A DNA stretch of 62,993 nucleotides, filler included, from Basidioascus undulatus (taxonomy: Eukaryota): NCBI GenBank assembly GCA_000826855.1. It is 5 parts of 5 records of this genome, joined end to end, with 100 filler letters (N's around TTAATTAATTAA, not from the genome) between each part and the next. Parts side by side here need not be neighbours in the genome. Positions count along the whole stretch, not along the records: positions 54,579 to 62,993 come from JTLS01001394.1; 4 more parts are not named here. One strand, written 5' to 3'. Both the position numbers and the translations under genes were made by a program. Below, piece after piece: positions 2,251-62,810 of the stretch. The first letter of the stretch is position 1, and each line of letters opens with the position of its first letter. Below the pieces are notes generated by a model. That model made no database searches. It worked only from the letters and a program-made list of their open reading frames with translations, and was not told the origin of the DNA.

Positions 2251-3738
2251 ATGAGCGCCCCCGGCCGGATCCGCCCCCCGACCGCCGCCCCCGCGCGCCC
2301 CTCCCCGCTCTCGCGCGGCGCGAGCTCGTCCTTCTTCCCTGGCGACGACTCGTCCGACGAGGACGACTCCGCGGGGCGTGACGAGCTCCTCACGGGCTTC
2401 TCCAAGTCTTCCGGTGCCGAACGGTGTGTCCCTCCTGTTCTCCCCTCCCCTCCCCCAGGCTGTTCAACCTGTTCACGTCTAGTCTCTTTGAATGATAGGC
2501 TCCACAACGCCCCCCGCAAGGACGCCCCGCTCGTGATCCCCGCACAGCCGAACGTCGACTGGCGCGCGCGCAAGAAGGCGCTGCGCTATGTCCCCGATGA
2601 GGAGCAGCGGCGCGCGGCCGCGAGCGGGGAGGGCGAGGAGAAGGCCGAGGAGCGCATGAACGACGGGGAGCAGAAGGCCGGGCTGTTTGTGCGCGAGAGG
2701 CGCACGCGCGTCGTCGAGGACGCGGAGGGCGGGCAGCAGGTCGAGGTCAAGGCGGAAGAGGTCAAGCCCAAAGCGGAAGAGACGCTAGACGAGCGCGCGC
2801 TCCGCGAGCTCCTCGCCGGGGACGCCGGGCCCTCCGCGTCCTCCGATGCCCCGCAGGTCGACATGATCCCCCTCTCCTCCGCGCCCGTGCCCGCCCCGCC
2901 AGGCGTGTCCGACGCGGAAGCCTTCCGGCGCGACGTCTCCTCGCGCGTGGACGAGTCGACGCTGGAGGACTACGCGCGCGTACCGATCGCACAGTTCGGG
3001 GTCGCGCTCCTGCGCGGGATGGGGTGGAAGGAGGGCACGGCTGCGAGCCGCACGCGCTCGGGCCCGACGGAGGCGTACGTCCCCACCAGCCGTCCGGCCT
3101 TGCTCGGCATCGGCGCGAAGCCGAGGCCTGTGGAGGAGCCGCTGCCTGGCCAGAAGGGGAAGGCGAAGAAGGGCGGACAGAGGAGACCGGACATGAAGTA
3201 CATGCCGCTGGTGAAAAAGGAGCGGGAGAGCTCGGGGAGCGCAGTACGTCCTCTCTTCTCTTACTCCACTTCCTCACCCTTCCCTTCCTGTCCATCCTCA
3301 CCCCTGACTCCGCACGCGCCCCACTCCCAGACCCCCCGCTCCCGCTCCCGCAGCCCCGAGCCCCCCACGCGCCGCCTCGCCGACCTCCGCACCTCCTCCT
3401 CCGGTGGGTCGTCCCGCAGCTCGACGCGCAGCCCGAGCCCAGAGCGCAGGCGCGAGCGCAGCGAGCGGGACCGCCGGGACGGACGGTATGAGGACCGCGA
3501 GAGGCGATACGACTCGGACAGGAGCAAACGGCGGGACGGGCGGTACGACGACCGGGACAGGGACAGGCGGTACGACTCGGACCGTGAGCGGGAGCGGCGC
3601 AGGGAGAGGGATGGGGACCGCGACCGCGACCGCGAGAGGGAGAGGCGGTATGATTCCGATCGCGAGAGGCGGTACGATCCGGATCGCGAGAGGGACCGCA
3701 GGAGGGAGAGGGAGAGGGAGAGGGATGGGCGGCGTTGA
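2251..3738 (+). CDS. SPP2: SPP2/MOS2 (GPKOW-like) G-patch pre-mRNA splicing factor
   Basis: PLVIPAQPNVDWR motif, STLEDYARVPIAQFGVALLRGMGWKEG G-patch, RPALLGIGAK, and an RD/RE-rich tail. Predicted introns 2424-2498 and 3244-3330. Confidence 0.9.
   Translation: MSAPGRIRPPTAAPARPSPLSRGASSSFFPGDDSSDEDDSAGRDELLTGFSKSSGAERCVPPVLPSPPPGCSTCSRLVSLNDRLHNAPRKDAPLVIPAQPNVDWRARKKALRYVPDEEQRRAAASGEGEEKAEERMNDGEQKAGLFVRERRTRVVEDAEGGQQVEVKAEEVKPKAEETLDERALRELLAGDAGPSASSDAPQVDMIPLSSAPVPAPPGVSDAEAFRRDVSSRVDESTLEDYARVPIAQFGVALLRGMGWKEGTAASRTRSGPTEAYVPTSRPALLGIGAKPRPVEEPLPGQKGKAKKGGQRRPDMKYMPLVKKERESSGSAVRPLFSYSTSSPFPSCPSSPLTPHAPHSQTPRSRSRSPEPPTRRLADLRTSSSGGSSRSSTRSPSPERRRERSERDRRDGRYEDRERRYDSDRSKRRDGRYDDRDRDRRYDSDRERERRRERDGDRDRDRERERRYDSDRERRYDPDRERDRRRERERERDGRR
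3445..3735 (+). repeat. Coding low-complexity mixed-charge repeat (RD/RE dipeptides, repeated RRYDSDR units)
   Basis: Repeated aggcggtacgactcggac / gagagggag / cgcgac units translate as RRYD(S/P)DR and (RE)n/(RD)n. Confidence 0.85.
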
Positions 3739-5925: not shown

Positions 5926-7648
5926 ATGATTCCGACGACACTCCTTCTCTTTGCGCTGGTCGCAACCGTTTCAGCCCATGGTTTCGTCAAAGGTGCGTTC
6001 GGTTCTCTCCACTCCGTTTCAAAGGGGCTTCCTTGATTGGCGTTCTTGTGCTTATTCACCAAGCAGAGGTCACGCTCAACGGCCAGGTCTACACGGGCCC
6101 GTTCCCCTCGTCTGGGCAAGGCGGCCTCGTTCGGCAGATCCAGAACACCAACCCGAACACCGACCCCTACTCGGACGCCATCGTGGTGGGTCATTTCAAC
6201 CATGTTCCATTCGAGCCAATAGCTCAGCGCACGAACCCCTTGTCTTCCCTTGCACCCCCTTAGTGCGGTCTCAACTCGCAGCGCTCGACGGAGTCGCCCG
6301 AAGTCGCTGCGGGATCGCAGGTCGAGTTCTTCTGGGGTGCGTGTTCTTAAAACTAGTGTAGATGCCCTTTGCTTAGCAAACGGGTACTCCAAAAAGACGG
6401 CGGAGACGGCTACAGCTTCTGGCCGCACAACTCGGGTCAGTAGCTGTCAGGCAGCATCACGATGTCTGTCTGAACCGCTGACATTCTCTTTCAGGCCCCT
6501 TGCTCACTTACATGGCGAAGTGCGACGGCGACTGCACGCAACTGGGTGTCGACGCCCTCAAGCAGTTGCAGTTCTTCAAGATTTCTCAAGAGTGCGCGTT
6601 CTTGCTCTCGTATCTCTGTTCGAGACGACAACTGACGTTCCTGGCCGAGTCGCAGAGGTCAGGACGGCTCAGGAGCTTGGGCAGCACAATCGTCGCTCAT
6701 GAACGGCGCGACGGCGAAGACGACCATCCCGTCCGACATCGCCCCGGGGAACTACGTAATCCGCCACGAGCAAGTAGGATCCCGCACCTCATCCTCGATT
6801 TTTTTGACATTCTTCCCTTTTTCAGGATCATCTCTCTCCATCTCGCCGACAACAGCTACGGGGCTGAGTACTACCCTTCATGTTCGACGTAAGTTCCCAG
6901 CTGTCTCCCGAGCGCTAGCGCTGCGTCGATGCTTACGACTGGCCACCATCCTCAGCGTGACGGTGACTGGATCTGGAAACGCCATTCCCTCGGACACCGT
7001 TACGTTCCCGGGCGCATACAACCCTGAGGTCTGTCGTTCCGTCAAATTTATTCTCAACACCATGGAAAGTCGACCTGACAGCGTTCGTGCCTTTGTTCCT
7101 CTTTACAGGACCCTGGGATTCATGTGAACATTGTGTGCCCTGTCCCATGCACTTACACTGGCTTTCAAATGCTTATCACTGCTCCCCTTAACAGTGGAGC
7201 ATGCGCGGCGACTACGTCTTCCCTGGTCCGGCCGTCTACACCCCCGGCAGCGGGGGCAGCAACGGCGGCGGAGGGAACAGCCCCGCTTCGCCCTTCTCGT
7301 CCTCCTCTGCTGGGTCCCGCCCATCCTCTACAGACGCGCAGTTCGACGATGCCGTTCCCACCGCTACCGAAGGGACGGCGTCTCCCTCTGTGAGCGCACC
7401 GGCGCAGTCTGACTCCACCACCTGGTGCGTTTGCGTCGCTCGGCAGGTTGAGCGCGGGGCAGCTCTACTTACCTTCTCATTGGAACATCCTTCATAGCAA
7501 CGTCGGCAGCTATCGGCGCGGGCGCGGTGGTTGGGGCCGGAACCAGCATCGCCGTCGCCGCCTGCCTCGGAGCGCAGCGCCTGAGCCGGCTGCTGCTGCT
7601 GCCCCCGAGGCGCACAATGGGCGTCGCCGCCTCCCTCTTGTTCATTGA
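5926..7648 (+). CDS. AA9 (former GH61) lytic polysaccharide monooxygenase, secreted, multi-exon
   Basis: Signal peptide MIPTTLLLFALVATVSA is followed by His1 (HGFVK). Also [39 protein letters not shown]...GAEYYPSC, VTFPGAY, PGPAVY, then a S/T/A/G linker and an Arg-rich tail. Confidence 0.93.
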
Positions 7649-9265
7649 GAGGCAACGTCCGCATCTCTTCCTGTTTTTTTTTCCTTCTCTGCCGCTTTCT
7701 GCTTCATGCCTGCTCGTTTATTGCCTTGCTCACCTCCTTTTAAGCACTTTGCTGGTCTTGCGCTGTGCGCGTATTTAGTGGACCTGGATGTCCCTGTGGA
7801 CCTGGCGCCCTGTTATTCCCTTTACTCGATATAACTTTTCTATGACCTTGTGTCGACGATGTATCGTGTTGCTTGAACAATAGATTGGCTAGCGGAACCT
7901 GGCGGAAAGAAGAGGACAAGTTGTGGGTACCGTAGACAGTAACCTATTCTTACACAAATTGTACACATAATCTGCCAGATCAAACTCCCCTGTCGGCTTC
8001 TAGAGCATAAGCAAATAGAAACTAATTGGGTTATATCCCGATACTGGGATGATCAGTCACCGCAAAGCCCGATGACATTGCAGACCTCGCGGTTTCTGCC
8101 TCCTCCCTTTACACTAAACTTTCCTTCCCTAACTACCCGGAGGTGGAATTCCATGGGTCGGGCTCGAAATCACGCCAGGACCTCCTGGGCCGGATGCCAC
8201 CTGCGGCGGCGTGTGCGACTCAACGCACGCTGCTGCCGGAGATGCATGAGTTGCTCAGAAGCTGACTTAGTACGAGCGTATGACAAGCTTGAAATCTCTG
8301 AGTTCTTTATTCGATTCAAAAACCATTCCAAAACCATTCCCAATGCTCTCCAATAGCCTCTCCGGGTCCAGTCGTTTATCCTTGACGATCAGATGGCAGT
8401 TGTGAAATTATGTTACCTGCATCTCACCCGCCGGTCCCGAAAAGCATGTGTGGCATTTTAATGCCGGAAGTCCATCTATAGTACCCCCATTGCTGTACAG
8501 GGCACTGAACTCGAAGGTATGAAGGCCCTGTTCGAGGGTCGTGCCGAGACGAGCTGCGGTGTCAAGCGTCGGCCATTTGGTCACCACCAGAAACCTTCGA
8601 CTTGCTTTCGCTGTCTGTAGGTATGTGCTAGCATGAAGATGGATATGCCGTCCACAGGCACATCGGGGAGTCTGCGATCACAATACGCCGGTCAGGACTG
8701 TAGGAGCTCTTGCGTTGATCGGCGAATATGGCTCTCGTGAGAGTGTCTACGAGTATACCCTGATTATAGGCCTCATTTGCTGTATAATGACGAGCGCTTC
8801 AGACTCCTTCGGCGAGGAGGTCAACGAGCGGACATGGGTGGTGCCGCGGCTTCCCCTGTCTTGTGTCGTTTCCGTGCAGCGTGCAGAAAAGGACCACCCC
8901 AACTATAGGTCCCCTGCCTTTGAAATTAAGGAATTAATTGTATGAGGCCGATCTTGGCGGGCACGCGTATGTGAACAGGGCGCCAGGAGCATGCTACATC
9001 AAAAAGGCAGCACGTCCAGTGCGTCGCTTCGTGAATCCCCTCGATGCCTACCGGTAGCCTCTTCTCACACAAGGGTACTGGCTGCTGCCCTCCGCAGCAG
9101 GTCCTTTCGACCCGCTTCTAGGTTCAGGCGGTGAGAGAATCTCAACCTTTACGACGGACCCAAGGTGCTCATCATAATCGCGCTCATTAACAGCACAAAC
9201 CTCGCCGATCGTTTCACAAAACCCATCGAATTTCTCAACACACCGACTTTCCTTACACAAGCACA

Positions 9266-10803
9266 ATGATCTCGACTATCGTGCTTCTTTCAGCGCTGGC
9301 CGCATAGGCTTCGGCTCATGGGTTTGTCAAAGGCACGTCCCATCTCGGCCGGTTGTGCTTCAGCATCAGACCTGCTCCATTTCTTAGAAAGTTTGGTTGA
9401 CTGAACCGGAACCTTAACCCCACGCACGAGCTCCTTCTTACCCGCTTCTCCTTCGTGGCGTTCAATGAGCAGAGGTCACGCTCAACGGTCAGGTTCACAC
9501 TGGACCTTTCCCTTCGTCCGGGTCAGGCGGCCTTGTGCGCGAAATTCAGAGCATCGACCCCATTAGCGATGTCTCCTCAGACCCCATTGTGGTAAGACAA
9601 CTCCATACTGACAGTGGCAACCAGATGAGTCACGCTCACAGATGCTACTTAATTCTCGTCGTAACCAGTGCGGTCGAAGGCCTCGACGGAGTCCCCCAAC
9701 GTAGCTGCCGGACCGCAAGTTGAATTCTACTGGGGTGCATTTCAGCCCTTCGAAGTGTCTGATTTTGGTACTTTAACTTTGTCCTGACGGAATGCACTAT
9801 AGATGCCGGGATGGCACCAGCCTGTGGCCTCACAACATTAGTAATCATTCCCCTTCGTGATTTACGAGACACCTCTAACAAGCCGTGCCATAAATTAATG
9901 GTTCAGATCCCCTTCTGACGTACATGGCTAAATGCGACGGGGACTGCACTCATCTCGATGTCGGCGCCCTCAAGAAGCTGCAGTTCTTCAAGATTTCTCA
10001 GGAGTGCGTAGCTTATGCCCTCTTGGAGCGCCTCTTGAAATTTAACTCATATAACCTATGCTTCTTTGTAGAGGATAAGATGCCTCCGGTTCTTGGGCCG
10101 CTCAGGAAGCGCTCACGACTGGCGCCACTTCGAAGCCTACCATCCCTGCCGACATTAGCCCGGGCAACTACATCATTCGTCATGCGGTACTACCAATTGC
10201 TAGTTTCTTAAATTCCATTGCCATTAAATATACTCTCTCTCAGATTATCTCACCCCATGAAGCCGACAATGTCGGTTGGGCGCAGTTCTATCCCTCGTGC
10301 TCAAGGTGCGCTTATGACCGCTGCAGACCTTTGGTTGCCGCTGGGTCGTGTGCTGAACACCAAGAAAATTTCAGCGTAACTGTCACAGGATCTGGAAGTT
10401 CTTCGCCTTCGGACACTGTTACGTTCCCGGGCGCATACAGCTTAGAGGTGAGTCGAGATATGTGTTGCCGCTTTTAAACATCTAAGCAAATGCACGTTTT
10501 AATTCTCTGCCCCGTGCAGGACCCCTGCATCCATGTCAATGCGGTATGATATACCTCTTTTAAAGACCTGCCCCTTTTTTGATCGCGGTCATTTGACAGT
10601 GGGACCTCAAAGGAAACTACGCCTTCCCTGGGCCGGCGGTCTTTTCCAGCGGCAGCGATGGCGGAACTCAGCGCCAGTGGCCATCATGGGCGCCGGACCG
10701 CCCTCAATTGGAGCGTACCTCTCCGACACTGAAAACAATATTGATGCATTACTCGCTTGGCCGGCTCACAAGGCCCGCTCATTGTATCCCCCGTATTGAT
10801 TGA
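9266..10803 (+). pseudogene. AA9 LPMO tandem paralogue, pseudogene
   Basis: Same exon order as the 5926 gene (HGFVK, EVTLNGQV, YMAKCDGDC, AQFYPSC, VTFPGAY). It carries an in-frame TAG at 9305-9307 in the signal peptide, a 7-nt deletion in exon 3 (about 9676-9683) and a 1-nt deletion in the WPHN exon (about 9805-9810). The 3' end is approximate. Confidence 0.88.
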
Positions 10804-11700
10804 TGCACTTCCTTTTTTCGCGCCTGGTGCGCTACGAGTATCTCTACCTCGATGAATGGAGAATGTGATTTATCACCATTTGATGGATACAATACCTCAG
10901 AGCAAACTTGGTACTGTCGTTCTTTGCGGTATCGTCTTCTGAAAATGCGGGCTACATTTGCATGAAACAGACGCAGGTCGTCCAAACAGGGTTTGTAACC
11001 GCCCAACCGGCGTTTGACCGCTCCTCATATTTTTCAGTCCCAGGACGTTGGGTCTAGGTACCCGATCCTATAAGTCCCGAACAAACGCCAACCCTCGACT
11101 GGTTGCGAAAGACTGGTCGGGGGATGGTAGGGGAACTGGCGCAGGGCACCGAGGAATGTGAGTTTTCGAGGTTCATGCTACAAACCAGTCAGACCTTGCG
11201 GTGACCTGCATGACTGCACCATGTCTCAACATATTTGGTCGAACGTCATTATTCCTTCTCTTGACGAAATCCTACGGTCAATCCGAGGAGAGGCTAACAT
11301 TCCACGCCCCCCCCCCCTGGCAACTGACCCGGCTACGCAGCGGCAGCACATAGGTCTAGACAAGTCATGACCTTGTTTTGTAATGTGTTTCCAGAAGAGA
11401 GCCAGGCAAGGCCAGCTCAGCATCTGATACGTTTTCTGTGCATGTGGCAGGAGCTTCTCGAACTGAAACCCCCGCGCCATAGCATGATGATCGACATCGT
11501 ATGTATGTGCTCGCATGAAGAATAGAAGCTTGTCTGATGCAGCTATCGTTTGAAGTGATCGCTTGCGTATTAAACTTCATTTGACTTACAGCTCATTCGC
11601 ACTTTCCTCGACTCTTTCGAGGCAGACAGCATTCAAGGGTTAGCTTAGGCGGATATTCATGACGCGAGGCCTTCCATCCTTCCATCCCCTCCTCTATGGA

Positions 11701-37537: not shown

Positions 37538-39326
37538 GCGGGGACGCGAGCCCACCACTCTTATCTTTGTTGAGCGAGCGTCTAGCAGACGCGTAGAGAA
37601 AGAAATAGATATGGAGGAAGAAGGCTGTCAGTGCGCGGCGGTCTGGCAGGAAGGAAGAAGCCGGACCGGATCGACTTCATCAGTTCGCTTGTAGGCTGAA
37701 ACGGCGCGACGGAAAGGGGGCGGGGAGAGTAAGAGTGAGTGGGGACTGATCAGCGCGGTGGGAGGCGCGTGCTCGTTGGCGGCGATGGCGAGGACGCGTA
37801 GCGCAATAAAGAGAGCAAGGAGAGGGCGTGCAGGTTGCGAGGAGGGTGAGGGCGAGCAGGCGTTCGGGCGAGGGGAGGATGATGCGCAGAGGGCGAGCGC
37901 GCGACAAATGGGTGCAAATCCGTCCCGATCGTTTGTTTCTTCGTTTCACCTTCGGGAGTGCTGGGTTTCGACTTTTTTTTTGTTCTCGCTCCTCCGCACA
38001 GTCGTTTTTGTGGTGATCGGTCGAGAAAATTGAGGAGGCAATGTAGAGTGGCATGCAAGTGCATAGTGATGGTCAATGCTTAGACGCGCTGGACGATCTG
38101 CTGTAAATTAAACCCTCACGTTCGAAACACAGTCGCGTTCAAAACCCCGCACTGGCATCTCTTCTCCCCAGGTGCACGTCGCTTGTCAGAGCAAGGAGAT
38201 TGAAGGTTACAAGCATTTCCTGTTGTCGCAGCGGCAAGCCTTTTAACTTGATCATACACGACGTGGACAGCCACTGATGGCAATACCCGCCTTCCAACCA
38301 ATGCACAGACGATTTCGAGCATATGCAATTGCTGCCGAGCTGCGCAGGCTGAACTTCGCTGGTTTTTGACATGGTGGACCAGGGGGTTCGATTCCCTCCA
38401 AAGCTCAATACTGACAACGCACTGCATGCGAACGAAGCACACACAATCCATCCAACATACAGCTGAGCGCCGCACGGTACGCAATTCGTCAATCCGCCTC
38501 CATCCCAAACCCCCACCTCCCCATCCCATCCTCCCAACGCCATCACACCCCCACTCCAAACCTCCTCGCAAACGGCCTAGCCTCCTCCCCACTCTGCTCG
38601 CCGGGACCGGGTGGCCGCCGGCTCGATGATTTATACAACGATGCCCCGCGGGTTGAATTCAGCGTCTGTTCGTAGTAATCATGAGCATTGTTCTTTGATT
38701 GCTCTCAGAGGCGTGGAGCGTGTCGCATGCAAGGCGAGAGCCATCGAAGCGGGCATCTGCAGACAGAGACTGCACGAGGAATGCCAGCTGCGTGTACTCG
38801 AGGGATGCACTGGTCCCAACAACTACAGACCGCCGACCAAGTCACAGTGTCAATGCGAGGAAGAATCACAAGTTGGATGGGTATCCAGCGCGGACCATCG
38901 CGCCAACGACGACTTAATAAGAGACTCCGATTCAGCACGCCCAGTAAGCACTGCAGGAAGTCGATTGTCCCGTCAAGAGGTCCTCACCGTCTCGTCTATC
39001 GTCGATGGAGAGCTGCAGATGCGTGAGCTGCGTCTGGATGCCCGGTCTGAAGCGGTCTGCGCCTGGATCCCTGGAATGAGTGCCGTATGCGCCTGCATCG
39101 CTGCGAGCTGCCCCTGCATCGCAGGCAGTGCCGTCGTCCCTGCTCAGGAGCTATCCGACAGTCAGCTCCGAGTCGGGTCTTTTGGACGGCCTTGGGACAG
39201 CACCCGACCGCTGCGCATCTCCAGCTCCCGCTCCGCCTGCGACGTTCGGGAGATGATTGGGTTGGGAGAGGACGGGAGGAATGGGACGGCGGGAGGAGGA
39301 AGGGGAGGGGTTGGGAGAGGATGGAC

Positions 39327-60147: not shown

Positions 60148-60290
60148 TCACCCCCCCGCCACCGCATGAATACAAGCACTCCACCCCGGGCGTACACAAC
60201 GGCTGCAAGGCGTCTCTCCGCGGCATTTTTCCTTTTTTAGACGACATAGGTTGCATGCCTTGGTCGCTCGAGTGCGTATAGGCGCAGGGA
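60148..60290 (-). pseudogene. Zn(II)2Cys6 transcription-factor remnant
   Basis: RTRATKACNLCRLKKEKCRGETPCSRCVR. Restoring one missing base gives -xGVECLY, completing canonical C-x6-C spacing. The current frame stops at 60148. Confidence 0.65.
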
Positions 60291-61897
60291 CTGTGGTGCT
60301 CAAGGAGGTCAGCACAGCTCTCGCTAACCAGTACCGGAATCCTTCACCCCAAGCACGGCCCGAGCCTGACGGCAGGGCGGCGGCGCCTCGGCGGGCATCA
60401 GGCACTGGGCAAACTATGATAGCTTTCAAGCGAGATATGTGCTGGATATTTTTGGGATCTTTGTTGTTGAGCATGTAACCCAAGGCGAGGGTGATGGCGG
60501 TCTGCAAAAGATTTAACGCTCGACGTCGCGACGACGCCCCCCGTCAAAGCCTTCTTCTGACGTCTACCTCACGGTCGCAAGTCTAATTGATTGACTGACA
60601 TCTTGGTCGTCCACAAAGATACTGATTAATTTAGCACTGGCAGACATACCCGCGGTTTACTTTTACCTTGTATCGGCCGTCGCAGTCTGCTATCCCACCT
60701 CCCAGCGCGATCACACGACTAGTTGTCTTGCTACTCATCAGCGACCATGTTTGCCAAGTTGATCAACAATTCACCCTTGGACCCATGAACCCCTCATCTG
60801 CTGGGTGCGCCCAATTCTTGCAAGACTGCACAGGTGTGCGCTGTTGCGTGCCATGGATGAAATGGCCATGGTTGACATTTCAAGGGGCTGCCGCCTCTTA
60901 CCAGCACGCAAACGGATTCGGAAGCGATGGAGCCCTCATTCGGAATTGACTGTACTTTTATGAAGAACATAGGTTTCCGCTCGCCAATCCGCTCGCCCAT
61001 CGGCAATGTGTTCACCGGAATGAGCCTAACGAAGCGGGACGCCGTTTATATCAAGTACTGAAATCTATCTTCTACGAGCTTAGCAACGTTTCTTTTCTTA
61101 CCTCTCCATGGAATATTCACCTAAGAATAGAGTGTCAGGATATCACATTTTAGCAGAACGCAACGACTGCTGGTGCACAGAGGCACAAAGTCGCGGTGTA
61201 TATCCTTTCCCTTCACACAGCGAGGGTCTTCAGCTCGTAAAAAAATCAGCACTCGACATGTGTCAGAGTCGACGCACCCGGAAAATGTGTTTCTTCTCAC
61301 ACGTACCCCTCTGAAGAACAAAAAAGGACAATCTAGTCAGTCAGCTCGCTGACTTCGTTGGCACGGACTGAACAGGAAAACTGAATGGAAATTTGTACTC
61401 TAGTCGGCTCCGTTCATCATAAATTTCTGTCGTAATCTAGGATGATGGGCTGGTTAGTTTCAAGAGCGTATATAATGAATGGCACTTTAACCTCATCAAT
61501 TAACACTGTAACCTTAATATTATCATGTTGGGATTTCTTCGTAGCTTAGCGACCTCGCACACACTCAATAGTATTTAGCACTATAGCACTCTGTCTTCCT
61601 CAGTCCTCTTCCGTTTTCACACTAGCCCCCTTCTGCTTCGCACTGGCCTACATTCTTCTGGCTGAGATGCCACGCACACACACACTCGCTCAGAGCTTCG
61701 AATAGCGAACAATCATGATCTGCATACCGCTTGCTCTGTTCAAAGCTCCCCAGAGGCACACCGACACCGCTGCATTATATCCAGCTTCTACATCGCTATC
61801 CAGTCAGGACAGCGAGGCAAAAGCGAGGCAAAATAATAGTTATAGAGTACCACTCAGCTTAGCATATCACTGCTGGAGTAAGCAAGCAGTAGTCGAG

Positions 61898-61970
61898 ATC
61901 AGGGGGTTGCAGGTTCGATCCCTGCGTCGGTCATGGCCGGCTGGCTCAATGGTAGAGTATCTGACTACGA
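61898..61970 (+). tRNA. tRNA-Arg(ACG) encoded in circularly permuted order (3' half 61898-61933, 5' half 61935-61970)
   Basis: The rejoined halves fold as a full cloverleaf: acceptor GGCCGGC/GTCGGTC + A73; D-stem GCTC/GAGT with loop AATGGTA; anticodon stem TCTGA/TCAGG with loop CT-ACG-AA; variable GGGTT; T-arm GCAGG-TTCGATC-CCTGC. Confidence 0.88.
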
Positions 61971-61971
61971 C

Positions 61972-61976
61972 TTTTT
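61972..61976 (+). terminator. Pol III oligo-T terminator of the permuted tRNA
   Basis: TTTTT begins 2 nt after position 37 of the 5' half. Confidence 0.7.
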
Positions 61977-62162
61977 GCCGCGGAGACTTCCCACACATAG
62001 GAGTGTGAACAATCCTTCCCCTGAGATTCGTTTTCACAGGCCCAGAGAAGCTGCGGGGTTCCCTCTTTCGACGTGAAAGCGCACAACACCATCTTTCACC
62101 ATCAATACTACCCGGCGAGAACACATTATTTGCTTTCCCATCGCCACTGAACAGCAGCGTCA

Positions 62163-62810
62163 TCACAGTTCCTCCAGCGCCTCCCCACACGCTGCCACCC
62201 CCGCGGCCGCACATGCCTCTTTCAGCCTGCTCAACACCGGCACGGCCTTGTCGTACACCTCCACGCTGAGCAGATAATCCACGACGATCACCTCAAGCCG
62301 CGGAGCCCACTTCTCCTTTTTCTGCAGCATCTCCTCAAAGCTCGCCACTGCGTTCGAAAGGTTGTCCAGGTTCGCCGTGTCGAGGGCGGTCGCGAGCGTC
62401 TCCAACGCAGGCGGAAGTGCGTGAAGGAGCTACAGCTCGATGCCTGATATCGAGCGACTAATAAGGTGTGTGAACTGAAGCTCGACGTACTTGAATGTAG
62501 TGAAGACCGTGAGCGGCCCGTAAATGTATCCAATCTGGCTGAGGACGAGGCGCTCGAGCGTGCCATGGTAGCCGTCAGGCCATCGAAGAAATCATCGAGA
62601 GGGAGGCTGAGTGCATCGGCAGATAGCTCGAGGGCCTGGAGCGCTTTTGGGGCGCATAGGATCCTCAGGATATCCTGAACGGGAATGTCGAACGTCCCAG
62701 CGCTGAAGGTGATGTCCATGATGGTCACGCTCGATGTGCCGTGCAGCGCATACAGCGCGTCGCGCTCTTCATCCGAGAGAAGCGAGTAGTCGGAGATGTA
62801 GAGCGAACTC
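62163..62810 (-). pseudogene. LRR/RNI-like (F-box-type) gene remnant
   Basis: LxxLxL repeats (PKALQALELS, TLERLVLS, LPPALETL, APRLEVIVV) are spread over two frames, with a frameshift near 62570 and an in-frame TAG near 62430. Confidence 0.55.

Follow-up and report, generated by a model that had tools for sequence, protein, structure and literature searches.

A circularly permuted tRNA-Arg(ACG) gene in Basidioascus undulatus and its probable dispersed copies

We analyzed a 62,993-nt stretch of the Basidioascus undulatus genome (GCA_000826855.1), hereafter the window, which joins five parts of the assembly end to end. Positions 61879 to 61976, within the part taken from JTLS01001394.1 (54,579 to 62,993), hold a circularly permuted tRNA-Arg(ACG) gene. 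Read along the + strand, the gene consists of a leader, tRNA positions 38 to 73, one T, positions 1 to 37, a C, and a run of five Ts (T5). The leader (61879 to 61897) is the equivalent of the 3′ end of an intron, and its last seven letters (−7 to −1, AGTCGAG) could base-pair with the anticodon loop and trailer. The 3′ half (61898 to 61933; positions 38 to 73) supplies the 3′ strand of the anticodon stem, the variable loop, the T arm with the B-box-like GGTTCGATCCC, the 3′ strand of the acceptor stem, and A73, as laid out in the cloverleaf drawn by ARAGORN. A 1-nt intervening sequence (T, 61934), with no encoded CCA, separates A73 from G1. The 5′ half (61935 to 61970; positions 1 to 37) contributes the 5′ strand of the acceptor stem, the D arm (A-box-like), the 5′ strand of the anticodon stem, and the loop C32 U33 A34 C35 G36 A37. 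The trailer (61971 to 61976) comprises C+1 (61971) and T5 (61972 to 61976), a terminator of the RNA polymerase III (Pol III) type one base past A37. Farther upstream, ∼50 to 68 nt 5′ of A38, an AT-rich, TATA-like stretch (61830 to 61848, + strand) is a candidate upstream Pol III promoter element.

When the halves were rejoined by script, ARAGORN recognized a 72-nt tRNA-Arg(acg) with all four stems and a perfect cloverleaf, whereas it found no tRNA in the unrearranged window, with introns allowed or not. The starting point of a preliminary description of this DNA, that a permuted tRNA broken at 37/38 lies here with its 3′ half 5′ of its 5′ half, therefore holds. The break falls exactly between positions 37 and 38, and the folded tRNA body is intact, at ruler distance from the cut sites. 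G1:C72 is unable to close over a 2-nt loop, and the computed folds leave a loop of 4 nt. An Rfam search at the gathering level gave no match. No other 5′ or 3′ half was found in the 63-kb window at up to 3 mismatches, leaving the unit as a single copy there. A T-loop-like GGTTCGATTCC at 38385 to 38395, set in a short stem context, aligned to the unit with a score of 21, below the background maxima of 28 to 32, and is not a copy.

Outside the window the unit is far from single. We compared the region 61400 to 62600 with contigs at ≥80% likeness and obtained matches in four runs, X1 to X4. The DNA contig runs X1 and X2 contain 96% of the words sampled from the region, and one of them may be the window's own source; X3, a soil metagenome, contains 10%, and X4, from the same sample as X2, next to none. 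In X1, 71 of 24453 contigs align (43 at ≥99% likeness, 16 at 95 to 99%, 9 at 90 to 95%, and 3 below 90%), and 27 of the 71 lie only partly on the stretch; 69 contigs align in X2. Summed depth over 61892 to 61973 reaches 3010 to 3627 in X1, against 18.5 to 21.7 in the flanks, and 7096 to 11455 in X2, against 30 to 47, values that exaggerate the number of copies, since unitigs that overlap and tRNAs of only partial similarity (≥80% alike) are included in the sum.

The limits of the repeated stretch follow those of the gene. Among the rows listed, copy alignments start at 61878 to 61895 and end at 61973 to 61978. Unlike left flanks occur, among the loose ends listed, in at least 9 X1 contigs at four places (61878, 61879, 61889, and 61891) and unlike right flanks in at least 9 at two places (61976 to 61977); the corresponding numbers for X2 are at least 5 contigs on the left and at least 10 on the right. 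Taking the listed rows together, the left flanks of other copies diverge at 61878, 61879, 61885, 61889, and 61891, and the right flanks become unlike only from 61973 to 61978, with C+1 and the start of the T run common to the copies. Flank agreement is low (0.47 to 0.63) in the listed rows that pool at least three contigs. G−3 lies inside every listed copy alignment that reaches the leader, including a diverged copy that aligns from 61895. The half-to-half junction itself is bridged, with at least 31 letters on each side, by three contigs of three studies: record 3 of X1 (4220 nt; aligned over 61895 to 61976 with 6 differences), record 12 of X2 (18542 nt; 61895 to 61976), and record 17 of X3 (151 nt; 61889 to 61973 with 2 differences and flanks of its own). 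Because the flanks of the unit are single-copy, the unit is not part of a larger repeat. Based on these contigs, there appear to be roughly a dozen or more dispersed copies that share at least G−3 of the leader (AGTCGAG or more at the divergence points listed) through C+1 and the T run, and this shared extent has the shape of a transcription unit. We rejected tandem ordinary genes with long introns as a source of the arrangement, given that no other halves occur in the window at ≤3 mismatches and that the flanks of other copies are unlike right past the T run.

The same comparison bears on genes in the ordinary order. A joint going back from 61970 to 61898, the mark of an ordinary intronless gene, is absent among the joints listed, and loose ends at 61933/61935 or 61970/61898, the mark of an ordinary gene with an intron, are absent among those listed, though single-contig rows appear. 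These negatives give only a hint that the permuted form may be the main or only form of tRNA-Arg(ACG).

Several contigs depart from the common pattern. Record 4 of X1 (2580 nt) and record 13 of X2 (50729 nt) align across the junction only from G43 to A26 (61903 to 61959), with 5 differences, and the matching ends where the anticodon stem begins; they could represent a further permuted tRNA that differs in its anticodon arm, or else a copy in decay. In record 20 of X4 (93 nt), 61926 to 61951 is followed directly by 61889 to 61955, such that a unit broken within its D loop runs straight into the 9-nt leader of a complete unit, with GTAG common to both at the joint. This arrangement suggests that the organism sampled in X4 carries a tandem or recombinant copy. 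X4 contains the unit and almost none of the words of its flanks. A 151-nt contig of X3 shows 2 differences to the single-copy flank at 62303 to 62445, and X3 therefore includes a very close relative of the source organism. The X3 copy differs from a look-alike X1 flank at 3 of 30 flank letters and from the window at 2 of 85 unit letters, too few to show selection.

The preliminary description had further proposed that leader and trailer form a relaxed bulge-helix-bulge (BHB) substrate around the anticodon loop. Its reading of the letters is correct throughout: leader positions −6 to −1 are G61892, T61893, C61894, G61895, A61896, and G61897, A38 is A61898, and positions 32 to 37 are C61965, T61966, A61967, C61968, G61969, and A61970. 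As it stated, C32:G−3 (the anticodon-intron pair), A34:U−5, and C35:G−6 can pair around a U33·C−4 mismatch, and other registers exist (GTAGTC at 61889 to 61894 with GACTAC at 61963 to 61968, and AGTCG at 61891 to 61895 with CGACT at 61968 to 61972). The fold built on these pairs fared less well. An anticodon-intron pair plus at least three of four central pairs occurs in 9167 of 125948 window 19-mers (7.3%), which is chance level. In folds computed on 61879 to 61976, the cloverleaf alone has −21.3 kcal/mol; adding the proposed central helix costs +1.4 (−19.9 kcal/mol), and adding the outer helix as well gives −13.9 kcal/mol. With the cloverleaf enforced, the three central pairs have a probability of ≤0.0001 and are predicted to be unoccupied.

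The register favored by folding is one of the alternatives. The cloverleaf plus the 5-bp helix AGUCG (61891 to 61895)/CGACU (61968 to 61972) reaches −27.6 kcal/mol, the constrained optimum, which adds A−2:U33 and G−1:C32, reaches −29.4 kcal/mol, and the register has a probability of 0.85 to 0.999 with the cloverleaf enforced over three choices of transcript ends. In this fold, a tRNA-like head sits on a 12-bp rod that is interrupted by two single-base bulges. C32 can pair with G−3, but in the predicted folds it pairs with G−1, and the two 3-nt bulges of the preliminary description (A−2/G−1/A38 and G36/A37/C+1), which would carry both cut sites, exist in its own register only. The strict, archaeal-type hBHBh′ motif, as defined in a figure legend of PMC3978253, has a central helix of exactly 4 bp and an outer helix of more than 2 pairs; here the U33·C−4 mismatch interrupts the former, and in the latter only U+2:A−7 is contiguous, with U+4·G−9 and U+5:A−10 coming after a U·U mismatch. 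The outer helix is essentially absent because the trailer is a C plus a U run. Judging from these models, the proposed BHB would be at most a minor conformer held by the enzyme.

The leader is nonetheless mildly unusual. Its energy gain of −8.1 kcal/mol is matched by 4.0% of 2992 genomic 19-mers and by 1.5% of 2000 leader shuffles, and it looks matched to the anticodon loop and trailer. The unconstrained fold of 61882 to 61978 is unremarkable (z = −1.41; 21 of 200 shuffles as stable) and uninformative. The preliminary description had read the complementarity of the flanks as selection for processing rather than a chance rearrangement. The second part of that statement is borne out by the copies with unlike flanks and by a leader that beats 96 to 98.5% of controls. 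The first part goes too far: the complementarity may simply be inherited from an intron at 37/38 under the duplication-and-loss model outlined in PMC3978253 and is thus not proof of selection on pairing. Conservation of the leader cannot separate the registers because the same AGTCGAG serves both. Since the partners at positions 32 to 37 are mostly fixed by tRNA function, only conservation is visible there, and real covariation could arise just where leader pairs with trailer or where a copy has a different anticodon.

We put the probability at roughly 0.6 that the locus is a member of a dispersed family of working permuted tRNA-Arg(ACG) genes, matured by the ordinary intron machinery. For this reading we infer transcription, each processing step, and the leader register in use, largely by following the maturation scheme for permuted tRNAs given in PMC3978253. 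Pol III would start 5′ of the leader and stop in the T5 run, and the transcript would fold as a tRNA body with its acceptor ends linked by a single U. Leader positions −7 to −1 would lie against the anticodon loop in the manner of an intron 3′ end. The fungal Sen endonuclease would then measure from the tRNA body, use C32:G−3, and cut after G−1 and after A37, and a Trl1-type ligase would join A37 to A38. RNase P and 3′ trimming would remove the single U, with CCA added thereafter. The intermediate would be a circle, as in algae, or a nicked two-piece tRNA if RNase P acted first. According to the passages of a 2023 review that treat substrate recognition (PMC10485636), eukaryotic endonucleases, including fungal ones, use the tRNA body as a ruler and place relaxed demands on the sequence of the anticodon-intron helix, of which only the proximal anticodon-intron pair seems conserved and critical. 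By that rule a full BHB would not be needed here, since the body, the cut distance, and a possible C32:G−3 pair are all present. For the permuted tRNA genes of algae, transcription driven by an upstream TATA element has been proposed, and some fungi reportedly have TATA boxes at their tRNA genes (PMC3978253). Whether the whole tRNA-Arg(ACG) family of this basidiomycete, a dozen or more dispersed copies, has been converted to the permuted form is an evenly balanced question.

Several observations weigh against a working family. The normal geometry of the internal promoter is lost because the B-box-like element lies 5′ of the A-box-like one, and the AT-rich stretch at 61830 to 61848 lies outside the sequence shared by the copies rather than being common to them. 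All four runs that match 61400 to 62600 are DNA contigs, and none is on record as RNA. The central pairs of the proposed BHB are at chance frequency and predicted to be empty, and the favored fold buries the 5′ cut site (A37|C+1) in a helix. Summed depth inflates the number of copies, and the high identity among them fits a young repeat equally well as selection. Genes for tRNA-Arg(ACG) in the ordinary order, or with a likeness below 80%, may still exist in this genome. Scanning metagenomes with the junction pattern yielded no orthologue, only 7 loci that match by chance in GC-rich DNA outside any tRNA; the 31-letter junction pattern had 0 matches in prokaryote genome contigs and 0 in viral contigs.

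Some of these points would be equally at home in a nonfunctional dispersed repeat, arising when a permuted or circularized pre-tRNA, or the transcript of a tandem gene, was reverse transcribed and inserted, or when the unit was otherwise amplified, with ordinary Arg(ACG) genes doing the translating. Multiple copies of very high identity with sharply bounded ends, a reversed internal promoter order, and matching runs made up of DNA contigs only all suit such a repeat, and PMC3978253 considers ways in which reverse transcription could yield permuted copies. The unit is only ∼98 nt long and ends in a T run, however, not in an A-rich or long interspersed nuclear element-type tail, and its cloverleaf is flawless; weakly, the lack of any ordinary-order copy among the listed joints and loose ends points the same way. 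We regard a dead repeat, the main rival reading, as unlikely. A tRNA-derived short interspersed nuclear element was rejected on the same features, namely a unit of ∼98 nt with the B-box-like before the A-box-like element and a T5 end. A single chance rearrangement or assembly artifact would account for the one copy in the 63-kb window and for a BHB register at chance level, but the identical order of halves in contigs of three studies with differing flanks already contradicts it. A one-off event is made unlikely by this recurrence of the unit with unlike flanks in DNA contigs, to the point that we give it almost no weight.

The favored fold, with its 12-bp rod, two single-base bulges, and tRNA-like head above, could also suggest a non-decoding, tRNA-like small RNA that is kept permuted and, like Y RNAs of the YrlA type, binds protein through the rod of leader and anticodon loop. 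The sole Rfam match at a relaxed threshold is indeed YrlA (RF02553; 61890 to 61976, 32.3 bits, E = 1.3e-4). In both, the two RNA ends form a stem that bears a tRNA-like head in permuted order (T arm, closed acceptor, D arm), and the YrlA model aligns because that head has the same rotated order. The score is far under the YrlA gathering score of 69, YrlA is a family of bacteria and phages, and the fungal unit, unlike YrlA, encodes a complete anticodon arm. Mimicry would leave the intact anticodon loop, the ACG anticodon, and the exact 37/38 break unexplained, and multi-copy dispersal is typical of tRNA genes, making this a very improbable account. A variant of the working-gene reading concerns the order of steps: RNase P would cut U|G1 in the nucleus, a paired two-piece tRNA resembling a split tRNA would result, and Sen and ligase would follow in the cytoplasm. 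RNase P may act first in a fungus because both later enzymes of budding yeast are cytoplasmic, the endonuclease being attached to mitochondria and the ligase cytosolic, and the order of steps would follow the location of the enzymes (PMC3978253). The 1-nt spacer, which strains the closed acceptor loop, is in keeping with such a nick, but algal permuted tRNAs are reported to pass through circles (PMC3978253). We consider the nicked route possible yet somewhat doubtful for this locus.

Returning to a working family of permuted tRNA-Arg(ACG) genes, its members can be compared with several known systems. Permuted tRNA genes of type II, with the junction at 37/38, were reportedly described by Maruyama et al. 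in 2010 from Mamiellophyceae (Ostreococcus and Micromonas) and the Bigelowiella natans nucleomorph; in those of Cyanidioschyzon merolae, expression is said to proceed by way of an RNA circle (Soma et al. 2007), and a permuted tRNA-Tyr(GTA) was reportedly found in Thermofilum pendens by Chan et al. in 2011. The fungal unit resembles the type II genes in its 3′-half-first order, 37/38 break, short intervening sequence, and lack of an encoded CCA (PMC3978253). The termini of the green algal and nucleomorph genes are said to form no more than a relaxed hBH motif, at 37/38, that suits a eukaryotic endonuclease, so that a full BHB is not needed in those cases either (PMC3978253). In contrast to these cases, the host here is a nonphotosynthetic fungus, the gene is multi-copy, and the central helix has a mismatch and is not part of the predicted fold. 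The Arg(ACG) isoacceptor is absent from the table in PMC3978253, and the intervening sequence of 1 nt compares with 11 to 64 nt in the green algal rows of Table 1 there.

With C. merolae, the fungal unit shares a proposed pathway of endonuclease cuts and ligation, then RNase P, tRNase Z, and CCA addition, and a proposed reliance on an upstream promoter; the red algal genes differ in having junctions at four positions, strict BHB motifs, and demonstrated expression (PMC3978253), whereas the fungal unit is known here from DNA alone. The T. pendens tRNA-Tyr(GTA) is the only other case stated in PMC3978253 to have a 1-nt intervening sequence, but unlike the fungal unit it is archaeal, is broken at 59/60, has its CCA encoded, and is served by a symmetric endonuclease. 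Closer at hand is the ordinary intron-containing pre-tRNA, the substrate of Sen/TSEN. It too is cut at 37/38, has the anticodon loop pairing with sequence 5′ of position 38, and offers the tRNA body as ruler along with a proximal pair, for which C32:G−3 is a possible counterpart here (PMC10485636). The difference is that the “intron” of the permuted transcript is open, its ends being the 5′ leader and 3′ trailer, and that a covalent link connects the acceptor ends.

According to passages of PMC3978253 (2014) and PMC13578239 (2026), permuted tRNA genes have been described only in one archaeon, a red alga, certain green picoalgae, and a nucleomorph. A search of the literature on permuted tRNA, fungi, and Basidiomycota, with subscription journals outside its coverage, found no fungal permuted tRNA. 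The kind of gene is thus a known one, the type II permuted tRNA gene; what sets this one apart is the fungal host, an Arg(ACG) identity that the PMC3978253 table lacks, the multiple copies, and a 1-nt spacer, otherwise stated only for the archaeal tRNA-Tyr. A multi-copy permuted tRNA in a fungus is more interesting than the weak BHB reading. If the whole family has been converted, Fungi, and opisthokonts at large, would have their first permuted tRNA genes, and no multi-copy permuted family would precede this one. Such a conversion would imply that a permuted layout is able to spread among the members of a gene family and is no quirk of tiny algal genomes. Such a family would extend permuted tRNAs to a new kingdom and offer a culturable, nonphotosynthetic system with well-studied Sen/Trl1 enzymes, in which the order of steps (circle or nicked) and the substrate rule (body plus one anticodon-intron pair or BHB) could be tested. 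ARAGORN's blindness at this locus also implies that tRNA-Arg(ACG) could go unreported by standard tRNA finders in such genomes.

Protein domains recognized in the window include Rad54 N-terminal, RPA43, G-patch, Mug190-type C2, eIF5, Not1, alpha-amylase, and fungal Zn2Cys6, and long open reading frames (ORFs) are few, in keeping with a nuclear genome rich in introns. Tremellomycetes have the closest relatives of the Rad54 piece (47 to 50% identity), and the closest named protein to the eIF5 piece is from Wallemia ichthyophaga (65%), followed by other basidiomycetes at ∼60%. Based on these similarities, we conclude that the host of the permuted unit is a basidiomycete fungus from a lineage with sparse sampling. 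As a peptide, the unit gave no candidates among proteins of 30 to 97 amino acids in its plus frame (55 amino acids); its minus frame (33 amino acids), searched against 1.84 billion representatives, gave one irrelevant match, a repetitive 449-amino-acid protein with 27% identity. The nearest recognizable gene is a Zn2Cys6 transcription-factor exon at 60148 to 60543 (− strand), within surroundings at 57 to 60 kb, with the tRNA unit placed upstream of this exon, between genes. On the other side of the unit, ORFs at 62341 to 62568 have no Pfam match. X1 and X2 each have another contig there, in which 62341 is directly followed by 62482, with 140 bases missing, and in which 15 letters differ over 62482 to 62568; it is a diverged paralogue or a second haplotype of this neighboring sequence.

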